Of a stretch of DNA of 64,000 bases, positions 2,857 to 63,757 are shown in pieces. The notes under the pieces were generated by a model. The model saw only the letters and a program-made list of their open reading frames with translations. It was not told the DNA's origin and made no database searches. The stretch's first letter is position 1. Each line of letters opens with the position of its first letter. The position numbers and the translations under genes are program-made. The stretch is from Mobula birostris (taxonomy: Eukaryota), in contig NC_092374.1 in the NCBI RefSeq assembly GCF_030028105.1, positions 188,884,638-188,948,637 of the forward strand. Reading direction: 5' to 3'.

Positions 2857-2879
2857 CTCTTCAAAAGGGCTTGAATATC
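2857..2879 (-). CDS. Copy A exon 4 (23 nt, DIQALLKR)
   Basis: CCTCAG|GATATTCAAGCCCTTTTGAAGAG|GTGAGT. A 23-nt microexon is typical of class IV TRIM genes. Confidence 0.85.
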
Positions 2880-5800
2880 CTGAGGAAAAAGAGAGAGAAT
2901 AGGATTGAGTGAAACTGTAGTTGAAACTCTCTGGAAGGGTTGGAGTATGAAGGCTAGACACTCAACCAGAAGAAAGACTGAGGAACTAATTTGATTGTTT
3001 TCCACAGCAAAACCCTTCACTCTGAGGTTACCTCTCTATGTCCTCCAATACCTTCTTCTCTTCTCAAAAACGGAACTGTTTGAACACCTACTTCCCTTCA
3101 ACCATTCAGTTGAAATCAGCAAAACCCAAATCACGACAGTTTATCATCACTGTGACCACTTTGACCTCTTGCACTAAAATGAACTTGGTTTTAATTATAT
3201 TCTTCCTTATAAAAGTTGTGTATAATTTATGCTTCAATTATGTTGTGAGGAGGGGCCACTTTCTAGGATCAGAAAATGCTGCAGAAGGTTGCAAACTCAA
3301 TCAGTTCTATCACGGGAGCTTGCCTCCCCAGTATTGAGGAGCTCTTTAAAAGGCAATGTATCAAAAACACAGCATCCATTATTAAAACAAAACACTGGAG
3401 GGTGGAGTGTCTCTGTCAGTGAGGCATCTCTCCAGCTCTCTCTCTCTCTCGTGGTCGTGATGCAGTGATGCACCACACTGGGGAATGGGGACTAGCACAG
3501 GGTCTGTGGTTGGGTGGGAGTGCAGAGTGGGGAGGAACTGGGACCAGGCCTGGAATGGGACAATTGGGGACAAATGTGGGAGGATGAAAGGCAGGGTAGT
3601 GGGATGCAGTGGAGGGGAAAGAAGGGGCAGAGGGTGTGTTAGGGAAGAGCGAAGCACAGAGGGGGAAGAGAAAGGGACAGGGGAGGATGGGGAGGAGAAG
3701 GAGGTGAGGGAAGGGGGAGAAAGGTGGGCAATGTGAGACTGCATTGGTGGTGATATGATCAGCAGCAGCCGGGGCAAATACAGAGTTGGTTGTAACACAA
3801 GGGAGAGGTAGCTGGGACCGGTTTTGGGAAAGGAGTATTTGGAGGAATGACATCATCTGTGCCTGTGCAGACACAGGAAACACGGGGTTGCCATTGTGAT
3901 TCAGGACAGCCCATTCCCAGAACAATTTCCACACTTATTTATTTGGACATACAGTGTGAACAGGATGGTCCAGCCCGATGGGCCATCCCACCGAGCAACC
4001 CAACAACTTTAACCCAGTCTAAACTAGCTCACTAACTGGTATGTCTTTGGACTATCAGAGGAAACCCACATGCACATGGGAAGGATTACAGACTTTCTTT
4101 CTTACAGAGGACACTGGAACTCAACTCTGAACTCCAACACCCTGAGACGTAATCACGTCACGGTCATCGCTATGCTACCATGCCACCCCGCCCCCCCATG
4201 GTATTTATTTGGGGTCAATCAATCCTCACCCCCATGGTGCTGAGGGCACCTCCTGGTGATGATTCAAGCAATTGCTCTGGGATTTCCACACTCAAAGGAT
4301 GATCTCCATTCCAGCAATCACACAGGGGTCAAACCCAGGGCCAGGATGGCAAGGGCAGGGTGTGAACCCACTGCTGGTTAGTCTCTGAACGTTTCTGAGT
4401 TTCTATTGAACTGACTGCATTCAGGAAACCAGTATTAACCCTAGTTGCCCATATAATTAAATTCACTCACAGGTATTTATGACAGTTTGGATGCCCCAGA
4501 CAAGAAAGTGACACATCCTGTACCTTGAGGAGCCCATGGGGATCGTCAATTTCCAATCTCACTTTTACATCTTGTATCACTGCTTCAAGTGAAGAGATTT
4601 CATCGACGGTTCTCTTTAAGTTGTTTTCCAGTTGTGTTAGGATTTTGTCCGCTTCTCTCTGCAGCTCTGCTTCCATCTGCTGCTGTCTCTCACGCAGGAA
4701 CTGGTGCATCTTTTCAAATTCAGCCCTGATCTGACAGCTCCGTCCATCAACCTGGTCCTGAATCAGAGTGAGGTTAGCAGAGAGTCACTGGCCAAATATA
4801 ATTCATGCATTTGAATGATTTATTTTCTAAATAACACATTTGGTGCTGCTTGGAGTGGTTATTTACACTCGGGTCAGGGTTGCTTTTTTTTTTTAAAAGT
4901 GAAAAATGGGCGCTGACTGGAGTGGGGTCAGAGTAAACAATCATAGACAGAATAATTGACCAAAATCCAATCCCAAGTATCTGACTGGATCTCTGGGATT
5001 GATCCCCATTCTGGAATCGAAGAGAGAACAACATGCAGTGAAGAGGATAGTTCAGGTTGTCCTTTGGGACTTCAGTAAAGTGACAAGATTCCACATGGGA
5101 GGATGTTTGGAAAGGTTACACCGTAGGATATGGGGTGAGGTGGCAAATTGTATCTATAGACTTAGCTTGGCAATAGGAAGCAGATTGTGTTGTTTTAGTG
5201 ATTAGATATTTGTGACCTGTGAAGCATTACAAATATCACTGTTGGGACTCCTACTGTTTTGTTCTGCAGATCATTTTGGATAGGAGTGTACAAGATACGA
5301 TTTGTAATTTTCCAGTTAACACGAAAATACTTGTGTTGATAGAGTGGAGAACAGTCAGAGTCTACAGGATGACATTGATCTGTTGGGAAATGAGGCAAAG
5401 CGGTGGCATTGGAATTTAATCTTTGGAAGTGTGAGGTGATGCACGTGGGGTGGACTAATAAAGAGTTGGACATAGACAATAAAAGGCAACGTCTTAGACA
5501 TTCAAAATGATAGAAGATTAGTCAGCATCTATAGAGGCAAAAGAATAGTCAAGGTTTCAGGTTGAGTCTCTTTATCATGACTGGGATATCCAGGGGTGAG
5601 TTACAGACTGGAATCTAATCAATAGGTTCAGGGTGGTCTATATATAGAATAGTGGATCCCTGGACTATGTTGCAGGCTGGGGTCTAATCAATGGGTTCAG
5701 GGTGTTTTTTATATTGAATAATGGATACCCAGGAGTGAGTTACAGGCTAGGATATAAGCAAGGGATTCAGCTGGTATCCATACCAATCTGTCATGGTGAG

Positions 5801-8315
5801 CGCTGGTAATGACTGAATCCAGGTCCGGAGGAATGACAGAATCCCATGTAGAGACTGAATACAAAGTTAATACATTGGAATTCCAAAAGTACTTCAGTGG
5901 CTCAAATGAATGACACCCTGAGAGGTGATGTTCTCAAAACGCAACCCACTTAAATAATCACAGAACACAGAAAGCCCTTGCCAGTCAAAATCAATTTGTG
6001 AAGATTAAACCAATAAAATACCAGGGATTATTGACTCACGTCAAATCAACAATTCACAAAGGGTCTCAGCCTGAAACGTCGACTGTACTTCTTCCTATAA
6101 ATGCTACCTGGCCTGCTGCGTTCCACCAGCATTTTGTGTGTTGCCTGAATTTCCAGCATCTGCAGATTTCCTCGTGTTTGCGTTTTTAAATTCACAAATT
6201 CAGCTGCTCTTTGTAACCTTCGGCGCACAGTGCCCTCTGGCTCCCCACACAGGCCGGAGGAGCTCATTACTTACAATGCTCAATATCTGGGAGCAAGAAA
6301 CAGGCTGGAGTCTGATAAAGAGGTTAGGTGGTTTATATGTAAAATACTGGATACCAAGATGCTTCAGATTCAAGCATCTATAGTCCCTGGCATCTCCAAA
6401 GTGTACCCAGGGGTTGGGTGAGCAGTAAGGTATGTTTGGATGGAGGCAGGGACCAAGTAACAGTGGACATTTCACAACATATAGAACGCAGTCTCTAACT
6501 TCTCATGTCAAATGATAAGGTCAGGTAATGAAAACAGTCCACACATTCCTTTCATTGTAGTTATTATTTACAGTCAGCTGCTTACATTTTGCTGTGGGAC
6601 AGCATCGTACAGCTGAAAGGGACCTGTCACTGTCAGTCTCTTTATTTATTTATTGAAATACAGCATCGAAAAGGTCCTTCGAGCCATGACGCCCAGCAAC
6701 CCCGATTAACCCTAACCTAATCAGCAGACAATTTACAATCACCAATTAAACTAACAATTGAAAAGTCTTGTCTTTGGACTGTGGGAGGACACTGGACACA
6801 CAGCCCAGGGAACCATCCACGATCACCGAATGATTCCTTACCTTCAGCCGCCGGATCACAGTCTCCCCTTCCTGCTTAGTCCGAACACTCTGATTCATTC
6901 GCTCTTGCAAAAGCTTCACTGCCTCTTCCAACTTTTCCTGAAAGTCAGAAGATGCAGAAGATCTGAGAAATGAACCTGCTGAATCTGCTGACCGAAGTGG
7001 GGGGGGGGGGTGGTGGCAGAGGACTGGGGGGGTAATCCCGTGGGGGAAATAGAATCATTCTTTCAAACCTTCCTACCAGTCATGGTCACCTCCCCTTCAC
7101 CCTTCATCTCCTAGTCCCTTTCTCTCATTCCCTTCCTCAATATTGCCCATACCCCATTCTGCCCCTCCCACACCATGCTGCATTTCCCCATTCTCCCACA
7201 CCTCCCTCCTGTTCGATCATCTCCAATCTGATTCAGTTTGTCTTCTTTCTACAACTGCTGCACCTCGACCTCTCCCCTCCACACCTCCCAATTCTGCCCG
7301 ATAAAGTTCGAAGTAAATTTATCATCAACGTGTTTGCACGTCGTCATATGTACAGGAAAATAAAGATATAAATAGCATTTATGAAAAACCACATGAGTCC
7401 ATTGGATGTGGAATCAATTCAGTGTTGAGGTGAGTGAAGTTATCCACACTGCTTCAGGAGCCTGACTGGCCTGGTGACTAGTACCTCTTGTACCTCCTTC
7501 CCAATGGCAGCAGCCAGAGAGCATGGTCTGGGTGAGAACCCACCTCCCCTCCCTTGCAGCCTCTCAGCTGTCAGACATCCCTCATCTACACTCCTCTTTC
7601 CGCCTCTCCCCATTCCTTCCTTTACCCTTGACCTTTTCTACATTCCCTTTCCCTTGCCATATTCTCCGATTTTCCTCCCGTTTAAAACGTCTTTTCCTTC
7701 GTTCTCAAACAACTCTCTCACCTCTAAACGGGACAATCCCATATCTCTGCTCTGTCCCTATCGTTTTCCTTCCTCCCCGACCTTCATCGCCCCCTCTCTG
7801 AGCTCTCCACCTTCTCAAAGTTTCCCTTCTCCGTCTCCCTGTTCTTTCAGCACTTACCCACCCGCCCCTCTCCCCGACCGCATGGCGGTGAGTTCAGGCG
7901 GGCGATCTCGCACCTTGTTCGCCTCGGCTGCCTCCTTTATCGGGATGACATTGTGCATCTTGTGCTGCGCAGACAGGCCACACACCAGGCAGATCATCTC
8001 CTGCTCCTCCTGACAGAACAGTTTCAGCTTCTCGTCGTGCTCCCGGCAGACAAGCTCCTTCTTCCGCTCGACCGCCCCCACCCTCAGCTGTCTGACATTC
8101 TCCGTGACGTTGCTCAGGATGTGAGCGGGCCTGGTGTTCCTCTGGGCGAACACCTGCCGGCACTGAGGACAGGAGACATCCCCCGAGACCCTCTCCCAAA
8201 CCTGAGAGATGCACGTTGCGCAAAAGTGATGTCCACACTCCAGAGAGACCGGATCGGTGAACACCTCCAGACAAACTGGACACGTTAATTCCTGGACCAG
8301 GTTTGCAGAAGCCAT
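2857..8315 (-). CDS. TRIM E3 ligase copy A (RING/B-box/coiled-coil; TRIM39/TRIM35/A33-like), partial; exons 5-6 presumably lie left of the window
   Basis: Exons 8315-7914, 6937-6842, 4757-4524 and 2879-2857, all with GT-AG boundaries and in frame. C3HC4 RING and B-box2 are intact. Confidence 0.88.
4524..4757 (-). CDS. Copy A exon 3 (coiled-coil, 234 nt)
   Basis: Encodes AEFEKMHQFLRERQQQMEAELQRE. Acceptor GCTAAC..GATTCAG|, donor AAG|GTACAG. Confidence 0.88.
5586..5780. repeat. Degenerate ~69-bp tandem repeat (about 3 units; also ~24465-24660 and ~41766-41960)
   Basis: Recurrent GAT(A)CCC..GAGTTACAG(A/G)CTGG..TCTAATC...TATAGAAT units in intron 2 of copies A, B and C. Confidence 0.55.
6842..6937 (-). 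CDS. Copy A exon 2 (coiled-coil, 96 nt)
   Basis: TTTCAG|GAAAAG...CTGAAG|GTAAGG; encodes EKLEEAVKLLQERMNQSVRTKQEGETVIRRLK. Confidence 0.88.
7914..8315 (-). CDS. Copy A exon 1 (RING + B-box2)
   Basis: MASANLVQELTCPVC..CGHHFC..C..CPQC followed by CREH..FC..C..C..H..H; donor AAG|GTGCGA. Confidence 0.93.
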
Positions 8316-9125: not shown

Positions 9126-9157
9126 TTCTCCTGGGCAGGACGCGGAACTTCACCCCG

Positions 9158-14195: not shown

Positions 14196-14722
14196 TTAAG
14201 TGGTGAGCAGTGTGAGTGGTTCAGGGTTTTTGCCTGATTTGTTAGTATATGGATTTAAGATGAGATAAAGTTTCTCAGTGAAACTGTCTGTGTAAGTGTG
14301 GAGGTGACACATATTGTCAGCATTGTAAAATGACACTTGGCCCCGCTCGTAATCCAGGTAAACCCCCAGTTTTCGAAGTTTTACTTCCAGATGGGAGATG
14401 ACATTTGGTTTCTTCACTGAATTAGAAGAGACATCAATAACCCACTGTCCCTGTTCCAGTGTGTAGAAGATGTCTCCATCCCCCTTTACAAACTCTCTGC
14501 AGACACCCACAATCCAGTCAGTCTTATTTCCAACACACACCTCCCAGTAGTGCCTCCCAGACATGAAACTCTGTGAACTCAAAACACACAAATCTTTCAC
14601 AAATCTTCTCGGGTGATCCTGACGATTTTGTTTGGTGGTCACGTACTGCACACTCATCAGATCCTGAGAGAGGACGAGATTATTGTGAGCTGTATCCAGG
14701 TCCAGTGTTAGCTGCTCTGGCA
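14196..14722 (-). CDS. Copy B exon 6 (PRY-SPRY/B30.2)
   Basis: LTLDLDTAH..GRHYWEV..LGVYLDYERGQVSFYN motifs; acceptor TTTCAG|, stop TAA. Confidence 0.94.
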
Positions 14723-17700
14723 CTGAAACGAAACAGTTACAGTAAGAAAACCAGATGGAACCTTCCAGCTAAGATGACACTTCACCTGTGAGTCTGTTGG
14801 GTTTATATACCATGTCCAGTGCTCCCGGTGTGGCCTCCTGTATACCGACATAGATTGGGAGACCATTACACTGAGCTCTTAGGCTCCATTGGCCAGACAA
14901 AGTGGGATCACCCATTGGTTCTCCCTCGACTGTCTGGGTAGACTCCAACCTGATGGCATGGACATTGATTTCTCAAACTCCATCCCCTTTTTCCCCTCTC
15001 AACTTATCTCCTTGCCTGCCCATCAACCCCCTCTGATGCTCTTCCCACTATTCTTTCTTCCATGGCCTTCTGTCCTCTCTTATCGGTCATCCTTCCCCAG
15101 GCCGGTATCTCTTTCACCAATCAACCTCCCAACTATTTAATTCATCCCTCCCTCTCCAGGTTTCACCTATCACCTTGTGTTTCTCTCTCCCCTCCACCGC
15201 CTTTTAAATCTACTCCTCGTCTATTTTTTCTCCAGTCCTGCCGAAAGTTCTCAGCCTGAAACGTCAATCGTACTCTTCTCCCTTGATGCTGCCTGGCCTG
15301 CTGAGTTCCTCCAACATTTTGGGTGTGTTGCTTGGAACTGCCAGGATCTGAGCTGACAATGGTGACCATCGTCTCCTCCCCCAGCCCAGGAAGTGTGGAG
15401 CCCCTGGAGGAGATTTCAATCCCCACTGCTCCCTCTGTCCTATTTAACACTGTACAATGTCACAGTGATTTATTTGTTACAGGGTAGTTCAATCCCCTTC
15501 CTCTGCCCAGCTGACTGTATTCTATGGTGTTTTATGTGGCTGCAGTTTTCTTTTTAAAAGCTAAACAGGACAAGCCATGACAGCTCCATTCCCAGCGACA
15601 CAGCAGCCCGTGAGGGGCCAGGGCTGAGTGAACATTTATTATTTAAACTGCAGATGCTGGAGATGTGAACCCAAAACAGAAATGTATCAGTACAGGCAGC
15701 ATTTCCCATGGTAGAGCGATCAAAAACAAGAGGGTGGAGGTTTAAGGGGAGGGGAAGGAGATTTAAAGGTGATCTGTGGGGTAAGTGCTTTACACAGAGA
15801 GCGCTTGCTATCTGGAACGTTCTCCCAGAGGAAGTGGTGGGATCAGATACAATTGCCAGGTTTAAGAGACATTTAGACAGACATGTGAATAGGCCAAGCA
15901 CAGAGGGATACGAGCCGAATGTGGGCACATGGGATTAGTGTACAGTAGATGGCCAGAGTGGGCTGAAGGCTTGCTTCTATACAGTAGAACTCTACGACTC
16001 TGAACAACCAGGACTGGGTGACAAAATCTGTGCTCAAATAAAAATCGAAAAATGCTGATGCTGGAAATTTGAAATAAGAACAGAGAACTCTGGAATCATC
16101 AGATCAGGTTGGGACTGTGGAAAGAGTGTGGAAAAACTGTGAATTGATGTTTTAGGTTGTAACAACGATCTGTACTTACAAGTTGATTTGTGGTAAATTC
16201 AGCACCAGATATCAGAGGGTATCACTACTTGAAACTACAGGTCAGTGTCAGAATAAGGGACAAAACCTTCGGATTTGAGAGGAGGAGAAATTTCTTCTCT
16301 CGGAGGGAGTTGAACCTCAGGAATTCTCTTTTCGCAGAAGCCAATTCTGTTTAAGTCACAGAATTTATGAAGGATGGAGGTGGATCAATCTCTAGATATG
16401 AAATGTATCGGGGGTAATCTGAGAGATGAGGGATGGTGGAACAGACCTGATGGGCCGAGTGGCCTTATTCTGCTCCTATGTCTTATGGTCTATTAGGAGA
16501 GAGCAGGACCAAGGTATTGAGACTGATGATCATCCATGATTGTGTGTGTGGATCAGTGACGATGTTTGCATGCTCCTGTGTTGGCTGATAAATGTGATGG
16601 ATGTGCTGAGTTGGGCTTCAAATGTCCTGAAGGTTTTCACTGGGCTGCACAACAAGGGACAACCAGTGGATTGTCTGAGGAAACACTAACCGGGAGTTAC
16701 AGTGGACTCAGGTGGAACCTGCCTCTGAGGAGGCAAACAGTGGAGCAACACAAAATGGTAAAGGGGAGGTGTCCCTAAAATGAGTGTTCCAGTCAATGGA
16801 TCAGCGATGGCGGGGAGGGAAACAGTCTCAACAAGGCTGTTCCATATGGGGGCAGCAGGCGGGGGTTCTTGGGGAGGGTCAGAAAGCATTTCAGGACATT
16901 GCTTATGTCGGAATGTGGGTGTTTGAAGCAGAAATGTTGCACACATTGAACAAATGCCTGATGAGGGATGGTAACTGATAAATGCAGAGTGTGGATCTGG
17001 AGCCTTGGAGTATCAGGAATTACAGGGGAAAAGGCGGCGGGGCAGTGGGGAGAAGGGGGATTACAGAGAAAGAGAAAGGTACCTGGTGAAACCACGGCTC
17101 TCATTTCCTTCCACACTTTGAGATATCTCAACCTTCCTTCAGCCACATCCTCATGAAGATCGACAGGCACCACTCCAGGACTGGAAACCGACAACTCACA
17201 CCTACAAAGTCAGGGACAGGAATTAGTGACACACATTACCAAAGACTCTGTCTGCACTTCTCACAGCCTCAGTAAAGCAGCCAACATCATCAAAAACCCC
17301 ACCCACCCTGTACACTCTCTCTTCTCCCCACCTCTCCCATCTGGGAGAAGGTACAAAATCATCAAAGCTCACCACCAGGCTCAGGGAGAGTTTCTATCCT
17401 GCTGTTATCAGACTGTTGAACAGCCCCCTTGTGTGATATAATGGACTGAAGACCTCTCCGTCCATCTACCTCGTCATGGCCTTGCAGCTTATTGTCTCCC
17501 TGCACTGCACTCTCTCTGTAACACTTCATTCTGCATTCTGTTGTTGTTTTCCATTGTAATACAGTACTGTGCAGAAGTTTTCGGCACATTTACTGTATAT
17601 AGTTAGCGTGCCCAAGACATTTGCACAGTATTGTAGTAATTTTATATATTACACTGTACTGCCGCCACAAAAGAATAAACAAATTTCAAGCCATATGTCA

Positions 17701-20700
17701 GTGATGATAAACCTGATTCTGATATGGGTTTCTATTGTGGTCTGAGAGTGGGAAGGTGACAGGGAGAGGGGAATCCTGGTTGGGAAAAGGGGAAGGGAGA
17801 GGAGAGGGATCTAGAAGCACCAGAAAGGCATTCTGTAATGATCAATAAACCGATTGTTTGAAATCAAATGACCTTGCTTGGTGTCTCAGGGCTGGTTGTG
17901 TCTACACCCATGCCACTCACTGCCAGCGGACCCCTTCTCTGCCAACTGTCCCACACCCTCCCATGGTTCTCCACCCTCTCCATTCCCAACAGAGGTTTAC
18001 AAACTCGCTCTCCATTCCACAATGACAAGTCAGTATTGTGCAAAATTCTTACACTGTTGTAAAGCAATAACCTGTACAGAAAACATGCAAAATGAAGTTT
18101 CATGTAACAATAATAAATCGACTGCCAATGTACATTAGAGACACAAAAGCAACCTGGTCTCAGAATTTCAGTTAAAATTTACTCACCTCTTCAAAAGGGC
18201 TTGAATATCCTGAGGGGAAAGAGAGAGAATAGAATTGAGAGACACAGTAGCTGAAAATCTCTGGAAGGATTCACAGTGAGGGCTGGAGTACAAAGGCTAA
18301 ACACTCAGCCAGAGGAAAGACTCAGGAACATGTGATTGTTTTCCTTTTTTCCATCTTTGCCTGAATTAGCTTTTGAGGACTGAATTTAAATAATGTTCCA
18401 CTGCAAGACCCTTCACTCTGAGGGTGACTTCTCTAAAAACTCTTCTCTTCTCAAGAATTGAACTGTTTGAACAGCTACTTCCCTTCAACCATTCAGTTCC
18501 TTAAGCAATCAGCAAAATCCATTCACTACGGTTTAGTATCACTGTAACCACTTTGAACTCTTGTATTGAAATGGACTTTGCTTTAACTATATTCTTTCCC
18601 TGTAAAAGTTCTGTTTCAATCGTTGTCAGGAGGGTCACTTTCTAGGATCAGTAAAAGATGCAGAGGGCTGAAAACTCAGGCAGCTCTCTCACGGCACTCC
18701 CTTCCCGAACACTGAGGACATTCTAAAAAGGCAATGCATCAAAAAGATGGCATCCATTATTAAGGGACCTCTCACCCAGCACATGCAGAGATTACTGTCC
18801 TGGAGCTCCTGCTTTTCATCTTTCTATATAACTCTATATTCTCACTTCAGAACATCCTCTCTTTTCCTGCTTTTTGGTTTGTACCAATACACACCAAAAG
18901 CTCTGGATGTCACCTTCCCACTTCAGAACTTTGTGGAACTGATCCACCACATCGTTGACCCGAGTTCCTGGGAGACAACATTCCACCAGGGTGTCTCTTT
19001 CAAGTCCACAGAATCTGCTTTCCGCTCCGCCAACTATGGAGACCCCTATCACAACTGTACTTGTCTTCTCCCCACTTCCCTCCTGACCCACAGAACTGCA
19101 GCTTCCCACATTGGTCATTCCCTCTAATACCATCTAAAGCCGTATACTTATTATCAAGGGGAACAGCCACAGGAACACTCTGCACTGGCTGCCTGATTAC
19201 TCTGCCTCCCCTGACACTCACCCAGATATCTGTCTGCTCTAACTTAAGGGTGAGCACCTCCCCGCAGCTCCTTATTTTCCCATGAGATGGAGGTCATGGG
19301 CTGCAGCTCCAGTTCCCTAAGACAATCTCTAAGGAGCTGCAGCTCAAAGCACTTTGCCCAGGTATAGTTACTAAGGAGACTGGAGATCTCCCAAATTTCC
19401 AACATCTCACTCAAGGAACATGCCAGTACCTCCAAATCCATCCTCCGCGCACTAGCTCCATGTACTAATAGAGAAAAAAAACTTACTGGAAACTTTCTTA
19501 CCTACCTAGAACTTCCATCTGTGCTTGCTCAAGCCTGTTGGGTCAATGCCAGGCCACTCACACCTCAACTTTTTATTGGCCACATGCTGATCGACACCCG
19601 CAGAAAAGCATCATCAGCGAATAACGTCTCGCCCACTGAGAAGTTCTGTGTGGAACAGTTCCACCTGCATTTTGTGTGAAACAGTTCCACCTGCATTTTG
19701 TATGAAACAGTTCCTCCGGATTTTGCTTGTGTTGACCCTTCACCCGTTGTGTCCACACTGACCATCGAACACCCACTAACACTAACACCATTTCATTCCC
19801 TCCACATTACAATCCATTGCTCCAGATTCTCCCATTTATCTTTCTGCTGGGGGCAGTTTACAGTGGCCAATTAGGCTATTAAACAACATACACTTCAGAT
19901 GGAGGAGGAAACTGGGATATTTGCCGATGAGATCGGGGAAACCATGTAGGCAGAAGGAGATTGTGAAAACTCCACACAGACAGCAGCAGTAAAGGTCTCT
20001 ATTGATCCTGGGTCACTTGAACTGTGGCTCTACCCACTGTGTCACTGTGCTGCCCCACCCACACCCGCCCAGCCCTGCAAAACGGGGCAACAGTGTTGGG
20101 ACCTTGAACCGCCAGTGAGAGGCTCTCCTCTCTCATCCCCACCACTCCAGCTGCCTCGGAGGAACATACTGTAGGTAGGAAAACTTGAGACATAGGTAGG
20201 AAAAGGAAGCAGGTCCAGAACATCAACTAGGCAGCTAGCTAGAAAAACAGAACTTCCAGGGTAGTAATCTGTGGATTGTCACCTGTGTCACACACTAGTG
20301 AATAGGATGGCGGAGAAACTGATGATGGGTGCAAAGTTCCAAATTTATGAATCATTGGGATCTCTTTCGGGGAAGGTATGATCTGATCAAAAAGGACGGG
20401 TTATACCTGAAACTGACCGCGACCAATATCCTTGTGGGCAGGTTTGCTACAACAGCTGGGGAGGGTTTAAGCTAACTTCTCAGGGGAGTGGGAAACTGAG
20501 TGATCGGGCTGAGGATGGGGCAGTTGGTATACAAGCTGAGGCAGTGCGTAGTGAGACTCTCAGGAAGGACAGGGAAATAATGGGGAAAAATTGCAGTCAG
20601 TGGAATGAGTGCAGTGCAACAGGGGGCAAAATCAAAAAGGTTAATGAATACAGCACTAATGGTGTTAAATTTGAATGCACACAGGAAACAGAATAAGGTA

Positions 20701-23700
20701 GACGATCATGTAGTGCGGTAAGAGTTTGGGAGTTATGACATTAAATTCACTCACAAATATTTAACTGACAGTTTGGATCCCCCCAGACCAGAAAGTGACA
20801 CATCCTCTACCTTAAGGAGCCCTTGGGAATCTTGAATTTCCAATCTCACTTTTACATCTTGGATCACTCCCTCAAGAGAAGTGATTTCGTCGATGGTTCT
20901 CTTTAAGTTGTTTTCCAGTTGTGTTAGGATTTTGTCCGCTTCTCTCTGCAGCTCTGCTTCCATCTGCTGTTGCTTCTCACGCAGGAACTGGTGCATCTTC
21001 TCAAATTCAGCCCTGATCTCACAGCTCCGTCCATCAACCTGGTCCTGGATCAGAGTGAGGTTAGCAGAGAGTCACTGGCCAAACCGAAATCATCAATTTG
21101 AATGATTCATTTTCTAAATAACAAATTCAGTGTTGCTTGGAGTGGTTATGGATACTGGGGTCAGGGATGCTTTATTTTTTAAATTAGAAAATGGGCGCTG
21201 ATTGGAGTTTCGGTGGGAGTGGGGGTCAGAGAAAACAATCAAAGACAGAATAATCGACCAGAATCCAATCCCAAGGATCTGACTGGATCTCTGGGATTGA
21301 CCTCCATTCTGGAATCAAAGAGACAATAACATGCAGTGATGAGGAGGGCAGCTAATGTTGTCTATTGGGCCTGACACTGTATTCTATCTGCTAATTCTCT
21401 GACATTCTCCTCAACTCCGAACGAGTAGTCTTTGGAGTTCTGCAAGTCTGTGTCTTCGCTGTTGCTTTGCTGCACACTTGATTGCTCGGTGGTGGGTGCC
21501 GATGCCTTTTTTTTGCTGCCAGGGGGAGGCAAGTTCGTTGCTTGCTGCCCCTTAGGGAGGGAGGAGTGCTGGTGTGGGGTACTTTGGGGTTCCAACATTT
21601 AACTGTCATTCAATCTTTGGGGCACCCCTCTGTCTTTGTGGATGGTTGTGAGGAAAAATCATTTCAGGATGACATTAAATGTAGCTTTGAAAGCTTTAAA
21701 GTACTTCTGTAGTACTATATATCCGCAAAACTACCTGCCCCTCCACCAATCTACGTATCATCTGCAAACTTCGCAACAAAGCCATCAATTCCATCAAGCG
21801 AATCATTGACATACAGTATAACGTAAAAGAATTGGTCCCAACACAGATCTCTATGCAACACCACTCGTCATTGGCAGCCAACCAGAAAAGGCTCCCTTTA
21901 TTCTCACTCTTTGCCCTCTGCCAATCAGCAACTGCTTTAACCATGATAGATTCTTTCCTGTACTACCATGGGCTAGTACCTTATTAAGCAGCCTCAAGTG
22001 TGTAACCTTGTCAATGGCCTTCTGAAAGTCCAAGTAGACAACATCCACTGATTCTCCTTTGTCTATCCTGCTTGTTATTTTTTTCAGAGAATTCCAACAG
22101 ATTTGTTAAGGGAGACTTTCCTTTAAGGAAATCATACAGACGATTTCTTGTTTTGACATGTGCCTCCAAATACCCTGAAACTATATCCTTTGCAATCCAC
22201 TCCAACATCTTCCCAACCACTGAGGTCAGTCTAACTGGCCTATAATCTCTTTTCTTCTGCCTCTTTCCCTTCTTGAAGAGCGGAGTGACATTTGTAACTT
22301 TCCAGTTTTCTTTAAAGACTATTACTTATGCCCCTATGATCTCTTCAACCACCTCTTTCAGAACCCTGGAGTGTACACAACCTGGTCCCGATGACTTATC
22401 TACCTCCAGGCCTTTTAATCTCCCAACAACATTCTCTCTAATAATGGTAACTTCACACATTTCTGCCCCCTGGCACTCTCAAACTTCTGGCATACAGCTA
22501 CAGCTAGTGCCTTCCATAGTGTTGTAAAATACTTATTCAGTTCGTCTACCATTTCCTTGTCCCCCATTACCACCTCTCCAGCATTGTTTTCCTGTGGTCT
22601 GATATCCACTTTATTCTCTCTTTTACACTTGCTATAACTGAAGAAAAAGCTGGTACCCTCTTTAATGTTATTGGCTAGCTTACTTTTGTATTCCATCTTA
22701 ATGACTTTTTAGATGCATTTTGGTGGTTTTTACAAGCTTCCCAATCCTCTCTTCCCACGATTTTTTGCTCTATTATATGCCCTCCCTTTGGCTTTTATGT
22801 AGGCTTTGACTTCTCTTGTTAGACACAGTTGTGTCATCTTGCCTTTAGAATACCTCTTCCTCTTTGGGATATATATATACTGTGCCTTCCGAAATGAATT
22901 CCAGCCATTGCTGCTCTGCTGCCATCCCTGCCAGTGTTCTTTTTCAGAAAATTCTGCTCAATTCTTCTCACGTGCCTCTGTAATTCCCTTTACTCCACTA
23001 TAATACTGATGCATCTGACTTCAGCTTCTCTTTCTCAAATTTCATGATGAGTTAGATCACCCACCTAAGAACCTAAGGTTCCTTTACCTTGCTATCTGAT
23101 CAGTTCTGGTTCATTGTACAACACCCAATCAATAATAATTGATCCTCAAGTAGGCCCAACTTTGAGTTTCTCTAAGAAGCCATCTGACGGGTATTCTAGA
23201 AATCCCCCCCTTGGCATCCAGCTCCAACTTGATTTTCCCAATTTTACTGTATATTGAAATCTCCCATGACTATTGTAAAATCGTCCTTTTGGCATGCATT
23301 TTCTATCACCTGCTGTACTTTGTAGACCACATCCTTACTATTATTTGGGGGCCTGTATACATCTCCCATCATTGTCTTTTTAACCTTTCAGTTCCCTCGC
23401 TCTATCCACAATGATTCAACGTCTTCCAACCCTATGTCACCTATTTCTAATGATTTAATTTCATTTTTTACCAACAAAGCAATGCCACCCATTCTGTAGC
23501 AAAAGGACAGGCAGGAAGGCAATGTACATCCTTGGGCATTAAGCTCCCAGCTATAATCTTCTGCCAGCCATGATTAATTGATGCTACAACATCATACATC
23601 TCAATCTGTAACTGTGCAACAAGTTCATCTACCTTCTTCTGTATAATGCATGCATTCAAATATAACACCTTCAGTTCTGTACTCACCATTTTTGATTTTG

Positions 23701-26700
23701 TCCATCTTTTACATTGCAACTCAACCTGTTGACTGTAATTTTGTCCTATCATCAGCGTCGTCTTGCTAAGAGTCTAACTACACATAGCCTCCGTTTCATA
23801 AACCAACTACCTCATCCTCAGCACTTTCACTACTGTTCCACCTACCAACGTGTAGTGATGAGCACAGAGGAAGATGTCTATTGGGACTCCAGTGAAGTGT
23901 TTGACAAGATTCCACATGTGAGTCTCATTGGCAAGGTTACACTAGGCAAATTTTATCTATGAACAGCTTGGCAATAGGAAACTGCTTGTGTGGTTTTAGT
24001 GATTAGATGTCTGTCACAAATATCACTGATGGCATTCCTACAGTTTTAGTCAATGCAATATCAACTAAGATAGGAGTGTAACAGATATGATTTTTAATTT
24101 TGAAAATAACACAAAAATGCTTGTGTTGATAGCACGGAGAACAATCATAGCTTACAGGATGACAATGGACTTTTGGTAAATCAGGCAAAGCTGTGGCAAT
24201 GGAGTTTAATCTTGGTAAGTGTGAGGTGATGCACATGGGGTGGACTGATATCAGTTGGATATAGGCAGTGAAAGGGAGTGCCTTAGGGCAGAGCTCCCAT
24301 TACAGGTCCATCATTAATGGTAAGGCACCATGGCATAATAAAGTTTGGAAAGCCCTATCTGAGGGAGACACTTCAAAATGATGGAGGAACTCGGAACGTC
24401 AGGGAGTGAATGGAGAGGCAAGTGAATAGTCAAGATTTCAGGTTGAGTCTCCTAATCATGACTGGGATATCCGGGGTGAGTTACAGACAGGAATGTAATG
24501 AAGGGATGCAGGCTGGTCCATCTATAGAATAGTGAATCTCTGGAGTAGGTTGCAGGCTCTGATCTAATCTAGAGGTCCAGCATGTGTTTTTAGACAGAAT
24601 AATGGATACCCAAGTGTGAGTTAAAGGCTGAGATGTAATCAAGGGTTTTAGCTGGTATCCATGTAATGCCTTTTGTGGTGAACACTGGCAATAACTAAAC
24701 CCAGGTACAGAGGAATGAAAGGGTCCCATGAAGAGATAGAAACAACACTTAATACACAGGATTTCCAAAAGAACATCAGTGGCTCAATTGTGTGACACCA
24801 CAAGATGAAATGTTCTCAAAACTCTCAAGGAATCACAGAATGCAGCAAACCCATGCTAGTCAAAATCAATTTAATAAGATTAGAGAGAAAGCACGATGTA
24901 TTAATGAGTCTAGTTAAAACAACAATTTATAAATTCACGTGCTCTTCTAAACCTTCAGAACCCAGTGCTCTCTCGCTCCTCACAGAGCCCACAGCAGCTC
25001 ATTACATAAACTCCAGATACCTGGGAGCAAGTCATAGGCTGGAATCTAATCGAGTGGTTCAGGTGGTTTAGATATAGAATACTGGATACCGAAATGCTGC
25101 AGATTCTAACTAATTTCTACATCTCCAGAGGATACCTGGGGATTGGGTGGGCAGTAAGGTACGTATGGATGGATGGAGGCAGGGACCAAGTGACAGTGGA
25201 CATTGTACAACATATAGAACCCAGTCCCTAACTTACCATGTCGAATGATAAAGTCATGTGATGAAAACAGTTTACACCTTTCTTTCATTGTAGGTATTAT
25301 TTACAGTCAGCTGCATTCATTTTGCTGTGGGAGAGTATTGTACAGCGAGAAAGGATCTGTCACTGTCAGGTTCATTCATTTATTAAATACAGCATAGGAA
25401 AAAGTCTCTGAGGCCCTATGAGCTGCACCGCGCAGAAAACCGAATTTTTTTCCTCAGCCTAAACACCAAACAATTTACAATGGCCAATTAACCTACCAAC
25501 CAATATGTCTTGTGTTTGGACTGTGGGAGGAAACTGGACAGATAGCCCAGGAAACCATCTACAAACACTAAATGACTTCTTACCTTCAGCCGCTGGATCA
25601 TATCTTCCCCTTCCTGCTTACTCCGAACACTCTGATTCATTTGCCCCTGCAGAAGCTTCAGTGACTCTTCCAGCTTTTCCTGAAAGTCAAAAGATGCAGA
25701 AGAAGATCTGAGAAAGGAATCTTCCCAGCTTGCTGGCATTTATTGGCCTTGAAGTGGGGTTGGGGGAGTGGGGAATGCTGAGATAAACCCTGAATACTTT
25801 GCTAACATTCATTAATCTTGAAGTGTGGGTGGGGGTAGGGGACTGCAAAAATAATCCTGAACTTGAGAAGGGTGGGAAATACAATCATTGTCTCTTATCT
25901 TCTCACCACTCAAGTTCACCTCTCCTTCTCTCTTCATCTTCCAGTCCCTCTCTCTCTCTCATTCCCTTCCTCAATCTTGTCGTTACCCCACTATGCCCCT
26001 TCATCATGCTGCATTTCCCCCTCTCCTCCACTTCAATCTGATTCTGTGTCTTCCTTCTAGTGCAACCATCTCCATCATTCGCTGCCTCACCTCGACCTCT
26101 CCCCTCCACACCTCCCAATTCTGCCCCATAAAGTTCAAAGTTAATTTATTATCAAAGCGTTTGTAGGTCATCATATGTTACCTTGAGATTGATTTTCTTA
26201 CAATCATTTACAAGAATATAAACATTAATGGAATCTATGAAAAACTAAAATAGCCAAGTCTGACAAAACATCCAAATAATACAAAAGGTAAATAAATAAT
26301 ATTGAGAACATGAGATATCTAGAACTAGATGACATTGCCTCAAGATTCAGGGGAGAAGATTTTGGATGGAGATGAGGAGAAACTCTTTTTCCCAGAGAGT
26401 GGTGAATCTGTGGAATTCTCTGCCCAGGGACGCATTTGAGGCTTCTTCACTAAATATATTTAAGATACAGTTAAGCAGATTTTTACATGGTAGGGGAATT
26501 AAGGGTTATGGGTAAAAGGCAGGTAGATGGAGCTGAGTTTACGGACAGATCAGCCACGATCTTACTGAAAGGTGGGGCAGGCTCGATGGGCCGGATGGCC
26601 TACTCCTGCTCCTATTTCTTATGTTCTTATGTCGAGCCCTTGAAAGTGAGTCCGTAGGTTGTGCTGAGCTGAGTGAAATTACCTACACTCTTTCAGGTTC

Positions 26701-41800: not shown

Positions 41801-44337
41801 AGTAGGTTCAGGGTGGTCTACATATAGAATAGTGGATCGCTGGACTATGTTGCAGACTGGGATCTAATCAATGGGTGCAGAGTGTTTTTTTTTAATTTTA
41901 AATAATGGATGCACAGGAGTGAGTTACAGGCTAGGATATAATCAAGGGATTCAGCTGGTATCCATACCAATCTGTCATGGTGAGCGCTGGTAATGACTGA
42001 ACCCAGGTCCGGAGGAACGACAGAGTCCCATGTAGAGAATGAATACAGAGTTAATACATTGGATTTCCAAAAGTGGCTCAAATGAATGACACCCTGAGAC
42101 AAAATGTTCTCAAAACTCGACCCACTTAAATAATCACAGAATGCAGAAAGGCTTTGCCAGTCAAAATCAATTTGTGAAGATTAAACTGAAAATACCAGGG
42201 ATTATTGACTCACGTCAAGACAACAATTCAAAAAGGGTCTCGGCCAGAAACGTCGACTGTACTTCTTCCCATAAATGCTACCTGGCCTGCTGTGTTCCAC
42301 CAGCATTTTGTGTGTGTTGCTTGAATTTCCAGCATCTGCAGATTTCCTCGTGTTTGCGTTTTTAAATTCACAATTTCAGCTGCTCGTTGTAACCTTCGGC
42401 GCACAGTGCCCTCTGACTCCCCCCACAGGCCAGACGAGCTCATTACATACAATGCTCAATATCTGGGAGCAAGAAAAGAGCTGGAGTCTGATAAAGAGGT
42501 TACGTGGTTTATATGTAAAATACTGGATACCCAGATGCTTCAGATTCCAGCATCTATAGTCTCTCGCATCTCCAAAGTGTACCCAGGGGTTGGGTGAGCA
42601 GTAAGGTATGTTTAGATGGAGGCAGGGATCAAGTAACAGTGGACATTTCACAACTTCTCATGTCAAATGATAAGGTCAGATGATGAAAATAGTCCACACA
42701 TTCCTTTCATTGTAGTTATTATTTACAGTCAGCTGCTTATATTTTGCTGTGGGACAGCATCGTACAGCTGGAAGGGGCCTGTCACTATCAGTCTCTTTAT
42801 TTATTTATTGAAATACAGCATCGAAAAAGTCCTTCGAGCCATGACGCTCAGCAACCCCGATTAACCCTAACCTAATCAGCAATTTACAATCACCAATTAG
42901 ATTACCAATTGAAACGTCTTGTCTTTGGACTGTGGGAGGAAATTGGACACTCAGCCCAGGGAGCCAACCACAATCACCGAACGTTTCCTTACCTTCAGCT
43001 GCCGGATCGCAGTCTCCCCTTCCTGATTACTCCGAACACTCTGATTCATTTGCTCTTGCAGAAGCTTCAGTGATTCTTCCAACTTTTCCTGAAAATCAGA
43101 AGATACAGAAGATCTGAGAAAGGAGCCTGCCGAAGCTGCTGACCGAAGTGGGGAGGCGGGCAGAGGACTGGGGGGTAATCCCTGAACCCCTGGGAGAAAT
43201 AGAATCATTCTCTCAAACCTTCCCACCAGTCATGGTCACCTCCCCTTCACCCTTCATCTCCCAGTCCCTCTCTCTCATTCCCTTCCTCAATATTGTCCAT
43301 ATCCCACTCTGCCCCTCCCCCACCATGCTGCATTTTCCCCATTCTCCCCACCTCCCTCCTATTGGATCGTCTCCAATCTGATTCAGTTGAGGTGAGTGAA
43401 GTTATCCACACTGCTTCAGGAGCCTGACTGACCTGGTGACTAGTACCTCTCGTACCTCCTTCCCAATGGCAGCAGCCAGAGAGCATGGTCTGGGTGAGAA
43501 CCCATCTCCCCTCCCTTGCAGCCTCTCAGCTGTCAGACATCCCTCAACTACACTCCTCTTCCCGCCTCTCACCCCCTCCCCATTCCTTCCTTTACACTTG
43601 ACCTTTTCTTCATTCCCTTTCTCTTGCCATATTCTCCGATTTTCTTCCCGTTCAAAACGTCTTTTCCTTCGTTCTCAAACATCTCTCTTATCCACCGCCC
43701 AACGTTGTTAGTCCAACTCCGTCATGCCCTGGAATCGTCCTGTTTCTAAACAGGACAATCCCGTATCTCCTGCTCAGTCCCTATCGTTTTCCTTCCTCCC
43801 CGACCTTCGTCGCCCTCTCTCTGCGCTCTCCACCCCTCAAAGTTTCCCTTCTCCGTCTCCCTGTACTTTCAGCACTTACCCACCCGCCCCTCTCCCCGAC
43901 CGCACGGCGGTGAGTTCAGGCGGGCGATCTCGCACTTTGTTCGTCTGGGCTGCCTCCTTTATCGGGATGACATTGTGCATCTTGTGCTGCGCAGGCAGGC
44001 CACACACCACGCAGATCATCTCCTGTTCCTCCTGGCAGAACAGTTTCAGCTTCTCGTCGTGCTCCCGGCAGACAAACTCCTCCTTCTGCTCGACCGCCCC
44101 CACCCTCAGCTGCCTGACCTGCTCCGCGATGTTGCTCAGGATGTGAGCGGGCGTGGTGTTCCTCTGGGCGAACACCTGCCGGCACTGAAGGCAGGAGACA
44201 TCCCCCGAGACCCTCTCCCAAACCTGAGAGATGCACATTGCGCAAAAGTGATGTCCGCACCCCAGAGAGACCGGATCGGTGAACACCTCCAGACAAACGG
44301 GACACGTTAGTTCCTGGTCGAAGATTGCAAAAGCCAT
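32360..44337 (-). CDS. TRIM E3 ligase copy C, complete RING/B-box/coiled-coil/PRY-SPRY protein, 466 aa
   Basis: Exons 44337-43936, 43088-42993, 40926-40693, 39096-39074, 36160-36042 and 32886-32360; open frame with GT-AG boundaries. Confidence 0.9.
32926..33600 (+). mobile_element. Penelope-like 3' fragment (same insertion as 14761-15332)
   Basis: Same position and tggaac duplication as in copy B. Confidence 0.75.
35203..35929 (-). mobile_element. Rex1/Babar-like LINE 3' fragment
   Basis: YFLRQLRKYNL..WFGS..DPSHPGHHLFQLLPSGRRFR motifs with an (ATTCTG)n tail. Absent from copy B intron 5. Confidence 0.8.
36042..36160 (-). CDS. Copy C exon 5 (119 nt)
   Basis: CELPVSSPG...SLKVWKEMRAVVSP with AG/GT boundaries. 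Confidence 0.87.
37010..39020 (-). mobile_element. Degenerate hAT/Charlie transposon in intron 4 of copy C
   Basis: FWISV...LLQFSTSYMCQQAFS (hAT C-terminal dimerisation-like) and LLLHVEIQWLHRG motifs. Confidence 0.75.
39074..39096 (-). CDS. Copy C exon 4 (23 nt)
   Basis: Identical microexon and splice sites. Confidence 0.85.
40693..40926 (-). CDS. Copy C exon 3 (coiled-coil, 234 nt)
   Basis: FEKMHQFLRERQQQMEAEL with AG/GT boundaries. Confidence 0.88.
42993..43088 (-). CDS. Copy C exon 2 (96 nt)
   Basis: EKLEESLKLLQEQMNQSVRSNQEGETAIRQLK, donor GTAAGG. Confidence 0.88.
43936..44337 (-). CDS. Copy C exon 1 (RING + B-box2)
   Basis: MAFAIFDQELTCPVC...CLQC with intact zinc ligands. Confidence 0.92.
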
Positions 44338-46466: not shown

Positions 46467-46486
46467 TTTCTCGCTTTCCATCCATA

Positions 46487-46555
46487 AGACAAACGGGACA
46501 CGTTAGTTCCTGGCCGAAGATTGCAGAAGCCATCTTTGTCCACTCTCCCCTGCTA
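46487..46555 (-). pseudogene. Orphan ~70-bp fragment of the TRIM exon 1 start (MASAIFGQELTCPVCL)
   Basis: Clear homology to 44291-44357; ATG at 46533; truncated after the first RING CxxC. Confidence 0.8.
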
Positions 46556-53400: not shown

Positions 53401-56038
53401 TTAAGTGGTGAGCAGTGTGAGTGGTTCAGAGTTGTCTGGTTTGTCAATACATGGATTTAAGATGAGATAAAGTTTCTCAGTGAAACTGTCTGTGTAAGTG
53501 TAGATGTGACACATATTGTCAGCATTGTAAATTGACACTTGGCCCCGCTCGTAATCTAGGAAAACCCTCAGTTTTCGTGGTTTTATTTCCAAATGGGAGA
53601 TGACATTTGGTATCATCGCTGAATTAAAAATGACTCCAATTATCCAGAATCCCTCTGCCAGTGTGTAGATGTCTCCATCCCTGTTTACAGACTCTCTGCA
53701 GACACCCACAACCCAGCTAGTCTTATATCCAACATACCCCTCCCAGTAGTGCCTCCCACGTGTAAAACCCTGTGAACTCAAAACATTTAATCGTTTTTAC
53801 AAAACTTCTTGGGTGACCCTGAAGATTTTGTCTGGTGCTTGTGTACTGCACACTCATCAGATTCTGAGAGAGGACGAGCTGATTGTGAGCTGTATCCGGG
53901 TCCAGCGTCAGCCGCTCTGGCACTGAAACAAAACAGTTATGATCAGAAAACCAGGTGGAACTGCCAGGATCTGAGCTGACAGCGATGACCATCGTCTCCT
54001 CCCTCAGCCCAGGAAGTGTGGAGGGTCTGGTCGAAATTTCAATCCCCACTGCTCCCTCCGTCCTATTTAACACCATACAACGTCACAGCGATTTACTTGT
54101 TACAGGGTAGTTCAATCCCCTTCCTCTGCCCAGCTGACTGTATTCTATTTAAAAACTAAACAGGACAAGCCATGACAGCTCCATTCCTAGTGACACAGCA
54201 GCCCGTGAGGAACTTAAAATTTGAAATGGAGCAAATTCAGCTCCAGATATCAGATGGTATCTTTACTTGGAGCTACGGATCACAGTGTCAGAATATGAGG
54301 CAAGGACTTTGGAATTGAGAGGAGGAGAATTTTTTTTCTCTCAGAGTGGTGAACCTCGGGAATTCTCTTCCGCAGAAGGTTACAGAGATGAAGTCACTGA
54401 ATTTATGAAGGATGTAGGTAGATCAATCTCTGGATGTGAAATCACCCCAGGGTATTGTGAGACATGAGGGATGGTGGAACAGATCTGATGGGCCGAGTGG
54501 CCTCATTTGGCACCTATGTCCTATCATCCATTAGGAGAGAGCAAGGAACAAGACACTGAGTCTGAGGATCATCTATGATTGTGTGTGTGGATCACCAGTA
54601 ATGCTCGTATGCTCCTAAATTTGCTCATAAATGTAGATCATTGTGCTGAATTGGGCTTCAAATGTCTTGAAGGCTTCCACTGGGCTGTTTAACCAGAACA
54701 ACCAGTGGATTGTCTGAGGAAACATTGCTTGGCAGATGCAATGGGTTCAGCTGTAAGCTGCCTCTTTGGAGGCAAAAGTTTGAGCAATATATCTTGCCAA
54801 AGCTGAGGTATCTCTAAGCTGAGTGTCCGAGTCCCTGGATCAGTGATGGAGAAAGGGAAGCAACCTCTACACAGTGTGTCCATCTGGGGGCAGGAGGTGG
54901 GGCGGGGCTGTTGGGGAGGTTCAGGACATTGTTTATGTCAGATCATGGGTATTCAAAGCAGAAATGTGGCACAAACTAAACACATGCCTGATAAGGGGAA
55001 TTACAGAGAAAGAGAATGGTACTTGGGGAGACCACAACTCTCATTTCCTTCCACACTTTGAGATACCTCAACCTTCCTTCAGCCACATCCTCAGGAAGAT
55101 CGACAGACACCACTCCAGGACTGGAAACTGGCAACTCACACCTACAAAGTCAGGGACAGGAATTAGTGACACACATTACCAAAGACTCTGTCTGCACTTC
55201 TCACTGCCTCAGTAAAGCAGCCAACATCATCAAAAACCCCACCCACCCTGTACACTCTCTCTTCTCCCCACCTCTCCCATCAGAGAGAAGGTACAAAATC
55301 ATCAAAGCTCACCACCAGGCTCAGGGAGAGTTTCTATCCTGCTGTTATCAGACTATTGAACATTCACTTGTGAGATATAATGGACTGAAGACCTCTCCGT
55401 CCATCTACCTCGTCATGGCCTCGCAGCTTATTGTCTGTCTGCACTGCACTCTCGCTGTAACTGTAACACTTTATTTCCCACTCTTTTGCTGGTTTCCATT
55501 GTACTACAATACTGTGCAAAAATGTTTGGCGCATTAATATAGCTAGAGTGCCTCCGACTTCTGCACAATACTGTAGTAATTTTATGTATTGCATTGTACC
55601 GCTGTTGCAAAAGAAAAAACACATTTCATGACTTTTGCACGGTACTGTATCTCAGTACTCTGTTGTAAGGATATAATCTGTGTGGAAGACATGCAGAACA
55701 AAGTTTCATGTAACAATAAATCAATTGCCAATATATGTTAGAGCAGCCTTTTCCAACCTTTTTGCCCTGGAGGAATCCTTGAAATAATTTTCAGGTCTCA
55801 GGGAAACCCTGCGTAAAAATTATTATATCTAGAGCTCACGGTACATGATCAGTAAGTTGTGGAGACAATAATCGATAAAAAACTGTCATATGGAAATAAT
55901 CTGTATAGAGGATATGCAAAACGAAGTTTAATGTAACAATAATAAATCAATTGCCAATATACATTAGAGACACAACAGCAACCTGGTCTCAGAATTTCAG
56001 CTAAAATTTACTCACCTCTTCAAAAGTGCTTGAATATC
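53401..56038 (-). pseudogene. TRIM copy D: headless exon 4-5-6 cassette with a +1 frameshift in PRY-SPRY
   Basis: Exons 56038-56016, 55141-55023 and 53922-53401 have intact splice sites. There is an extra base in the T5 run at 53794-53798 and a premature stop at 53723. No exons 1-3 are found between 56039 and 63230. Confidence 0.82.
55745..55880. mobile_element. hAT/Charlie terminal fragment
   Basis: CAGCCTTTTCCAACCTTTTT.. terminus directly after tgttagag, at the site homologous to the hAT insertion in copies A and C. Confidence 0.5.
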
Positions 56039-62842: not shown

Positions 62843-63230
62843 AAATGTTTATTACATAGAGAATATCTGCACATTTTTACACTGATTGCTAGATGCAGAT
62901 ATCACAATTCTGGAGAACAGTCCACTTCATTTTATTCCAACAGCACGTGCACCTGAACTGCGGTCAGTAGGAGAGAGTGTGAGAGACAGCTGGGAAGGAG
63001 ACACCGAGTCTAATTTACAGATTAGACATCAATATAAACATCCTCACCTGTCAGTAGTAATGGCAGAGAATCAGTTCTCACATGGTGGTCTGGACTTGAA
63101 ACATTAACTACGTTTCCACCATTGCTGAGAGCTCCAGCTTCTTCTGGTTGTATTTCAGAGAATCGGTGCAGTGAGATCTGCTCAGTGGGTCCAGAGAAGT
63201 CTGAGACCTCGGAGAACGTGTCCCACTGTG

Positions 63231-63757
63231 TTAAGTGGTGATCAGTGTGAGTGGTTCAGAGTTGTCACCTGTTTCGTAATCGCATGGATTTAAGATGAGA
63301 TGAAGTTTCTCAGTGAAACTGTCTGTGTAAGTGTGGATGTGACACATGTTGTCAGCATTGTAAAATGACACTTGGCCCTGCTCGTAATCCAGGTAAACCC
63401 CCAGTTTTCGGAGTTTTATTTCCAGATGGGAGTTGACATTTGGTATCTTCACTGAATTAGAAAATACATAAATGACCCAGTATCCCTCTGCTGGTGTGGA
63501 GGTGTGCCGTCCATCCCTGTCTACAGACTCTCTGCAGACACCCACAACCCACTCAGACTTATATCCAACACACACCTCCCAGTAGTGCCTCCCACATGTA
63601 AAACCCTGTGAACTCAAAACATTTAATATATTTACAAATCTTTTCGGGTGATCCTGACGATTTTGTCCGACAGTCACAAACTTCACACTCATCAGATCCT
63701 GAGAGAGGATGAGCTTATTGTGAGCTGTATCCGGGTCCAGCGTCAGCCGCTCTGGCA
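63231..63757 (-). CDS. TRIM copy E last exon (PRY-SPRY/B30.2); rest of the gene presumably lies right of the window
   Basis: LTLDPDTAH..GRHYWEV..LDYEQGQVSFYN in an open 527-nt exon with TTTCAG acceptor. Confidence 0.93.

Follow-up and report, generated by a model that had tools for sequence, protein, structure and literature searches.

A stretch of 64,000 nt of the genome of the manta ray Mobula birostris (RefSeq assembly GCF_030028105.1, contig NC_092374.1, positions 188,884,638 to 188,948,637, forward strand; hereafter the window) was analysed for the content and evolution of a gene array of the TRIM family. Self-alignment of the window revealed a tandem repeat of a minus-strand TRIM unit in five homologous copies, interrupted by repeats. 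The copies were labelled T1 to T5 from left to right and correspond to units A to E of a preliminary description of this DNA. The unit is composed of exons of 402, 96, 234, 23, 119 and 527 nt with AG/GT borders. Two copies are complete and encode 466 amino acids each, namely T2 (14196..27630; exons at 27630-27229, 25679-25584, 21044-20811, 18209-18187, 17201-17083 and 14722-14196) and T3 (32360..44337; exons at 44337-43936, 43088-42993, 40926-40693, 39096-39074, 36160-36042 and 32886-32360). T1 (2857..8315) is present with exons 1-4 (8315-7914, 6937-6842, 4757-4524 and 2879-2857), in which RING and B-box were detected by Pfam, while its exons 5 and 6 lie beyond the window. T5 (63231..63757) is represented by an intact B30.2 exon (exon 6), the remainder of the gene being located outside. 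Five units with the same exon sizes had been described; the five homologous units were recovered, but all six exons are seen only in T2 and T3, T1 and T5 being cut by the window edge and T4 having exons 4-6 only. The peptide of the 23-nt exon 4 is identical in all four copies having this exon, as had been noted, and one of them carries a silent change. T2 and T3 are 100% identical to the Mobula birostris records P0002 and P0007, and the T5 exon to residues 293-466 of P0013, which bears out the proposed elasmobranch origin. These NCBI records, named 'zinc-binding protein A33-like', are the same genes and their names are automatic only. No unrelated host gene was recognised within the window.

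The products of T2 and T3 are class IV TRIM proteins, i.e. a RING, B-box and coiled-coil (RBCC) module followed by PRY-SPRY. A C3HC4 RING, one B-box (zf-B_box at 86-126), PRY and SPRY scored above the Pfam cut-offs in all three full proteins, and the 15 zinc ligands (8 in the RING and 7 in the B-box) are the same in all 14 ray proteins compared. In the predicted structure model (mean predicted local distance difference test score 77.7, predicted template modelling score 0.40) the coiled coil forms a 110-residue helix (126-235), and Pfam TRIM_CC was found only below cut-off, in one of the three proteins. The fold of the model matched TRIM72, TRIM20, BTN3A1 and TRIM21, with TRIM72 and TRIM20 supporting the coil. 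The template modelling score to the TRIM21 PRYSPRY was 0.90 by target length, and the B30.2 domain is about 36% identical to that of TRIM21. By sequence, TRIM21 was the best solved-structure match of exon 1 (expectation value 6e-29), and pyrin and BTN3A1 were the best solved-structure matches.

T4 (53401..56038, minus strand) consists of exons 4-6 only (56038-56016, 55141-55023 and 53922-53401) and is a likely pseudogene. Upstream of T4 no trace of exons 1-3 was detected by blastn or tblastn, and near 57041-57196 intron 3 is fused with sequence whose homologue in T2 lies above the start. Exon 6 has 522 nt, with two codons missing and its frame shifted by one base within a run of A (53794-53798); owing to this frameshift, the motif 'KRLN' previously listed for this copy had been read across the break. 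The T4 B30.2 domain shows 8 departures at conserved positions, and AATAAA, present after the stops of the other three copies, is absent. It is highly improbable that T4 is alive, with the frameshift explained by faulty assembly and exons 4-6 spliced to the RING-coil exons of T5 as an alternative B30.2 cassette. The shared strand and the location of T4 downstream of T5, the splice sites (still AG and GT), the position of the break in an A run and the low dN/dS (nonsynonymous to synonymous rate ratio, omega) of exons 4-5 versus T2 and T3 (0.18 and 0.09) would fit such a cassette. However, the splice would have to skip T5 exons 4-6, after which a poly(A) signal stands, and the departures, the absence of AATAAA and the lack of a close match among the relatives listed in the protein search argue for a pseudogene. 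A further exon 1 stub (46487..46555, minus strand), which reads for 16 codons from 46533 and then breaks off, is the remnant of another copy. Together with the truncated T4, it corroborates the birth-and-death evolution that had been suggested. Outside the window, further shortened or missing B30.2 ends were observed in P0014 (Mobula birostris) and in P0122 and P0124 (Hemitrygon akajei), which fits a frequent decay of genes.

The phylogenetic position of the array was analysed with 113 of 186 fetched proteins by a quick method with Shimodaira-Hasegawa-like approximate likelihood ratio test support; some sets excluded P0014, P0020 and further rows that were truncated or fused. The rows of the tree are 90% clusters among the top matches, not gene counts, and may include isoforms. 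Eleven Mobula and two stingray rows form one clade (support 100) within a 43-row elasmobranch subfamily (support 99). Catsharks (18 rows), smoothhound (3 rows) and mackerel sharks (6 rows) make up clades of their own in this subfamily, and three other sharks contribute single rows. Both Mobula species take part in the expansion (4 and 7 rows). Rows named TRIM39, TRIM35 and TRIM69 fall outside a 52-row elasmobranch clade, with weak deep support and in a tree holding no zebrafish or human reference rows. The 'TRIM39' row itself belongs to a caecilian expansion, and a search for genuine TRIM39 references yielded caecilian and turtle expansions only, which resemble the one described here. The separate clades agree with the lineage-level expansion that had been proposed and exclude one-to-one orthology with a conserved TRIM. 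By this tree, devil rays, catsharks, smoothhound and mackerel sharks each had their own expansion of the subfamily, and overlapping B30.2 sites vary in these expansions.

Divergence between the copies is unevenly distributed over the domains. As stated for units A and B, the RING of T1 and T2 does not differ in residues 1-56, the nucleotide differences in this part being 4 silent ones. Over the 134 residues of the RING/B-box region, 10, 16 and 18 differences were counted among T1-T3, and the B30.2 domain differs at 33-49 of about 174 residues between copies. For 10 Mobula proteins the mean pairwise difference was 0.108 in the RING/B-box, 0.129 in the coil and 0.211 in the B30.2 domain. The contrast between B30.2 and RING/B-box is therefore about two-fold, and the wording 'near-constant' for the latter was overstated. 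All five B30.2 motif sets of the preliminary description are present.

The introns show that the copies do not share a single history along their length. Between T2 and T3, 465 of 2614 sites differ in introns 1-3 versus 264 of 3285 sites in intron 5 together with the 3' flank (p 2e-29), and since the distances of T2 and T3 to T4 are flat over the same regions (p 0.95 and 0.37), the local mutation rate is not the cause of this contrast. The introns of T1 and T3 are close (0.05-0.07). Between T1 and T2, 6 of 90 silent sites differ in exon 1 versus 482 of 2733 intron sites (p 0.004); being a CpG island, exon 1 may evolve at a reduced rate. An insertion of about 570 bp in intron 5 is found in T2 (14761..15333) and T3 (32925-33601) and is absent from T4 and T5, and a repeat insertion of about 130 bp in intron 2 is found in T1 (6060..6189) and T3 (42234-42365) and is absent from T2. 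T3 thus has one insertion in common with T1 and another with T2. The simplest reading would be that T1-T3 are young siblings and that the middle of T2 derives from an older paralog. In single-clade tests with 13 ray proteins, the coil rejected the main B30.2 clade (p 0.022) and the B30.2 domain rejected two coil-based groupings (p 3e-41 and 4e-5); the remaining tests gave p 0.050 and 0.077, and the groups were picked after the trees had been seen. Judged from these comparisons, the copies are mosaics that arose via exchange between paralogs, and the N-terminal constancy reflects such exchange in part. Whole-tree approximately unbiased tests between domain trees were discounted, as they compare fully resolved but poorly supported trees. 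Beside the B30.2 exon, about 200-230 bp of intron 5 in T5 (63757-64000) are diverged by 0.06-0.07 from T2, T3 and T4 (15333-15544, 33601-33812 and 53956-54148), and the exon itself by 0.14-0.17. This low divergence may be due to conversion or to hidden constraint.

Codon site models were used for the analysis of selection. For the four B30.2 exons, the comparison of M8a with M8 yielded 2dlnL (twice the log-likelihood difference) of 27.5, with about 16% of codons at omega of about 8. The intact-frame trio T2, T3 and T5 gave 15.6 and two other trios gave 23.3 and 20.0. Three controls were performed: a null with a class fast at silent and replacement sites alike was rejected (10.3 and 11.0; p ~0.001), a null allowing double and triple nucleotide changes was rejected in six of six settings (10.5-15.0), and 50 simulations under the null reached a maximum of 5.65. 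No selection signal was found in exons 1-4 (RING-coil) of T1-T3 (omega 0.68, likelihood-ratio statistic 0.08). The site models and their controls thus uphold the earlier claim of positive selection, and we consider it very probable that selection of this kind acted on the B30.2 domain. Ten B30.2 codons reached a naive posterior above 0.8 (exon-6 positions 14, 27, 43, 67, 68, 83, 85, 92, 96 and 159), and all except 14 and 27 are located in or beside the five motif sets mentioned above.

The differences between the B30.2 exons had been described as clustered. A runs test along the sequence did not reveal clustering (p 0.24), but four long loops are rich in variable codons (34 of 53 codons versus 40 of 121, p 0.0002), and the loop codons alone gave omega of 2.1-2.5 (p ~0.02). 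The names v1-v4 are applied to these loops tentatively. A placement of nine of the top ten sites in loops (p 0.003) was discounted, because the loop limits had been drawn after the sites were seen. Two of the top sites, exon-6 positions 43 and 85, align with the BTN3A1 pocket residues H351 and K393 (2 of 5 alignable, p 0.027), in an alignment with a spacing that recovers each of the six pocket residues given in PMC4303140. The comparison of sites covered 38 proteins. Higher variability at the ten top sites was likewise seen in 17 catshark paralogs (0.46 versus 0.15) and in 6 mackerel-shark paralogs (0.43 versus 0.14), and B30.2 site variability is correlated between expansions (rho 0.46, 0.41 and 0.53; RING-coil 0.09, 0.07 and 0.32). 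Shared structural tolerance could account for part of this correlation.

On balance, the array is probably a young class IV TRIM cluster with the B30.2 domain under site-specific diversifying selection, the products of which are likely cytosolic immune receptors. A number of results weigh against this interpretation. The GY94 (Goldman-Yang) site models were run in our own implementation and not in PAML, on four DNA sequences only, one of which is a likely pseudogene (T4, masked at the break), and gene conversion can bias such models. The background omega of the four-copy fit was about 1, so that the constraint on the B30.2 domain is weak. The preliminary count of about 33 amino-acid changes to 6 silent ones between units B and C was right for T2 and T3 (33 amino-acid differences in 174 codons; 36.5 nonsynonymous and 7.5 synonymous differences), although the resulting dN/dS of 1.41 is not significant (Fisher p 0.57). 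As the other five pairs gave 1.00-1.30 and none of the six was significant, pairwise dN/dS was rejected as evidence for selection. With limits fixed by DSSP, the top ten sites were enriched neither outside strands (7 of 10, p 0.52) nor in long loops (5 of 10, p 0.18). Fourfold-degenerate sites in the loops are raised too (5 of 19, 4 of 18 and 4 of 18 in pairs with T5), loop replacement sites exceed the flanking non-coding divergence in only three of six pairs, all with T5, and the K393 match depends on an ambiguous alignment gap. Of 210 conserved positions, T3 has changed at 15, including P50L in the RING and G347V and C366R in the B30.2 domain, compared with 4-9 such changes in eleven other ray proteins of full length. 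It is possibly a gene on its way out, and relaxed constraint thereby supplies part of the T2-T3 difference. On the functional side, two further points belong here. The position of the TRIM21 E12 anchor is occupied by Q, H or Y in all 38 subfamily rows. For the interferon-response-like element, a strict pattern, chosen after the site was seen, gave 1 match in the window with 0.18 expected, and a loose pattern, set before the scan, gave 8 matches versus 4.2 expected.

Several of these results are what would be expected if redundant young duplicates drifted under relaxed constraint, with patchy conversion homogenising the conserved parts and tolerant loops merely looking selected. Whole-exon ratios of 1.0-1.4 at a background near 1, a broken T4 and a decaying T3, raised silent sites in the loops, strong mosaicism and a RING-coil omega as high as 0.5-0.8 are all compatible with it. 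Such drift is nevertheless unlikely as the whole explanation. Omega above 1 was still preferred when the fast class raised silent and replacement rates together, the loop codons taken alone remained above 1, the signal persisted in the trios without T3 or without T4, and the RING-coil exons, subject to the same conversion, gave no signal.

The suggestion that the selected products act in pathogen sensing or restriction comes from analogy and from one promoter motif. An interferon-response-like element with two GAAA half-sites is located at 27656..27667 (minus strand), 26-37 nt above the T2 start codon; it is weaker above T3 (44365-44374) and degraded above T1. Directly above this site, an ETS-like AGGAAGTG was observed in all three promoters (~27680-27690, 8365-8375 and 44385-44395). 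Interferon-response elements have been described as two or more GAAA repeats (PMC7819612). By this motif, T2 would be interferon-inducible. In the RING, the equivalents of TRIM21 E13, D21 and linchpin R55 are kept by alignment, as in the TRIM5/TRIM21 group, with which the array also has RING, single B-box, coil and B30.2 in common (roles of E12, E13, D21 and R55 from PMC6776665). With these residues kept and E12 lost, ubiquitin-ligase activity of the array RINGs is likely and a preference for Ube2N is uncertain. TRIM21 differs from the array in this anchor and in its B30.2 sequence.

In the proposed mechanism, the B30.2 domain would bind foreign targets and the RING would tag them with ubiquitin. 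Coiled-coil dimers would present two B30.2 heads, and target-driven clustering would switch the RING on. The analogy is with TRIM5 and TRIM21 and with tested arrays such as the squamate harbingerTRIM (PMC12262214), from which dimerisation, activation by clustering and a pathogen target are proposed. Unequal crossing-over and gene conversion would create, reshuffle and delete copies and keep the effector modules alike, while selection separates the binding surfaces. The selecting agents would be pathogens, probably viruses.

Selection could also be real with a moving target that is no pathogen, such as endogenous retroelement proteins, metabolites of the butyrophilin type or fast-changing host proteins, for example of germ or blood cells. 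The matches to pyrin and to BTN3A1, the pocket of which binds small ligands (PMC4303140), would agree with this, as would the retroelement remains in which the window is rich. Zebrafish bloodthirsty is reported to act in erythropoiesis, and none of the TRIM35-like genes was reported as interferon-induced (PMC3137616; 10.1101/693333). We nevertheless judge such a target to be rather improbable. The residues of T2 at the BTN3A1 basic pocket positions are D, I, F, N and N, the basic residues thus not being kept; the interferon-response-like element points to infection; and comparable arrays, when tested, restrict viruses (PMC12262214).

The cytosolic immune receptors proposed here can be compared with several known systems. 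Teleost finTRIMs resemble the manta array in tandem expansion, in coil exons of 96 and 234 nt and in pseudogenes, and their selected sites lie in B30.2 loops. In contrast to the manta array, with a 402-nt first exon encoding one B-box and middle exons of 23 and 119 nt, finTRIMs have a first exon of 555-594 nt with two B-boxes and middle exons of 154 and 60 nt, and they are teleost-specific, whereas the array belongs to a ray and to an elasmobranch clade (finTRIM data from PMC2657112). Membership in the finTRIMs was rejected on the basis of the exon plan, the single B-box and the elasmobranch clade. Zebrafish btr (bloodthirsty-like, TRIM39-related) and trim35/hltr arrays are likewise clustered class IV RBCC-B30.2 genes with positive selection in the B30.2 domain, with recombination among btr paralogs and with domains lost in some copies, as in the manta array (PMC3137616). 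They belong to a different lineage and are likened here by pattern, not by orthology. Species-specific paralog clustering and possible conversion are known from the rodent Trim5 cluster as well (PMC6677749). The squamate harbingerTRIM genes, a lineage-specific cluster outside mammals, are interferon-induced, while only a motif is present in the manta, and antiviral activity and a capsid target have been demonstrated for them, while the array is a sequence-level finding (PMC12262214).

Bony fish, reptiles and mammals are already known to have expanded B30.2 TRIM arrays with positive selection, so that the kind of array is not new and the addition is a case in cartilaginous fish. No study of such a TRIM array in cartilaginous fish was found in a literature search that left subscription papers mostly outside, and the main text of the manta genome preprint, considered without its supplements, holds no TRIM gene passage. 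A wider view, which we put forward tentatively and with some doubt, is that of an elasmobranch family of interferon-inducible antiviral TRIM receptors with at least four independent expansions, in which the same B30.2 pocket positions diversified, binding modules were swapped among shared RING-coil backbones and separate promoters tune the infection response, as a counterpart of TRIM5alpha and finTRIMs. If the immune reading is true, the array provides a few candidates for antiviral effectors and for specificity residues in the oldest jawed-vertebrate lineage with interferon, in which the parallel expansions serve as natural replicates.

Further features were observed in the window. A perfect tandem repeat of 37 bp (8613-9125; 13.9 copies with 100% matches) begins about 300 bp above the T1 start, and a 64-bp repeat (9154-9427; 4.2 copies) comes next; the repeats at 8613-9427 are open in several frames and gave no Pfam match. 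Remains of non-LTR (long terminal repeat) retroelements (zf-RVT; RVT_1) are located at 18-575 in intron 4 of T1 and at 45273-45797 above T3. At 59128-60361, two overlapping long frames have the look of a Penelope-type retroelement by eye, with no Pfam match, and the 3' part of this region resembles the intron 5 insertion of T2 and T3. A Tc1/mariner-type transposon with 215-bp inverted ends of 95% identity and broken transposase pieces was found at 48453-49882.

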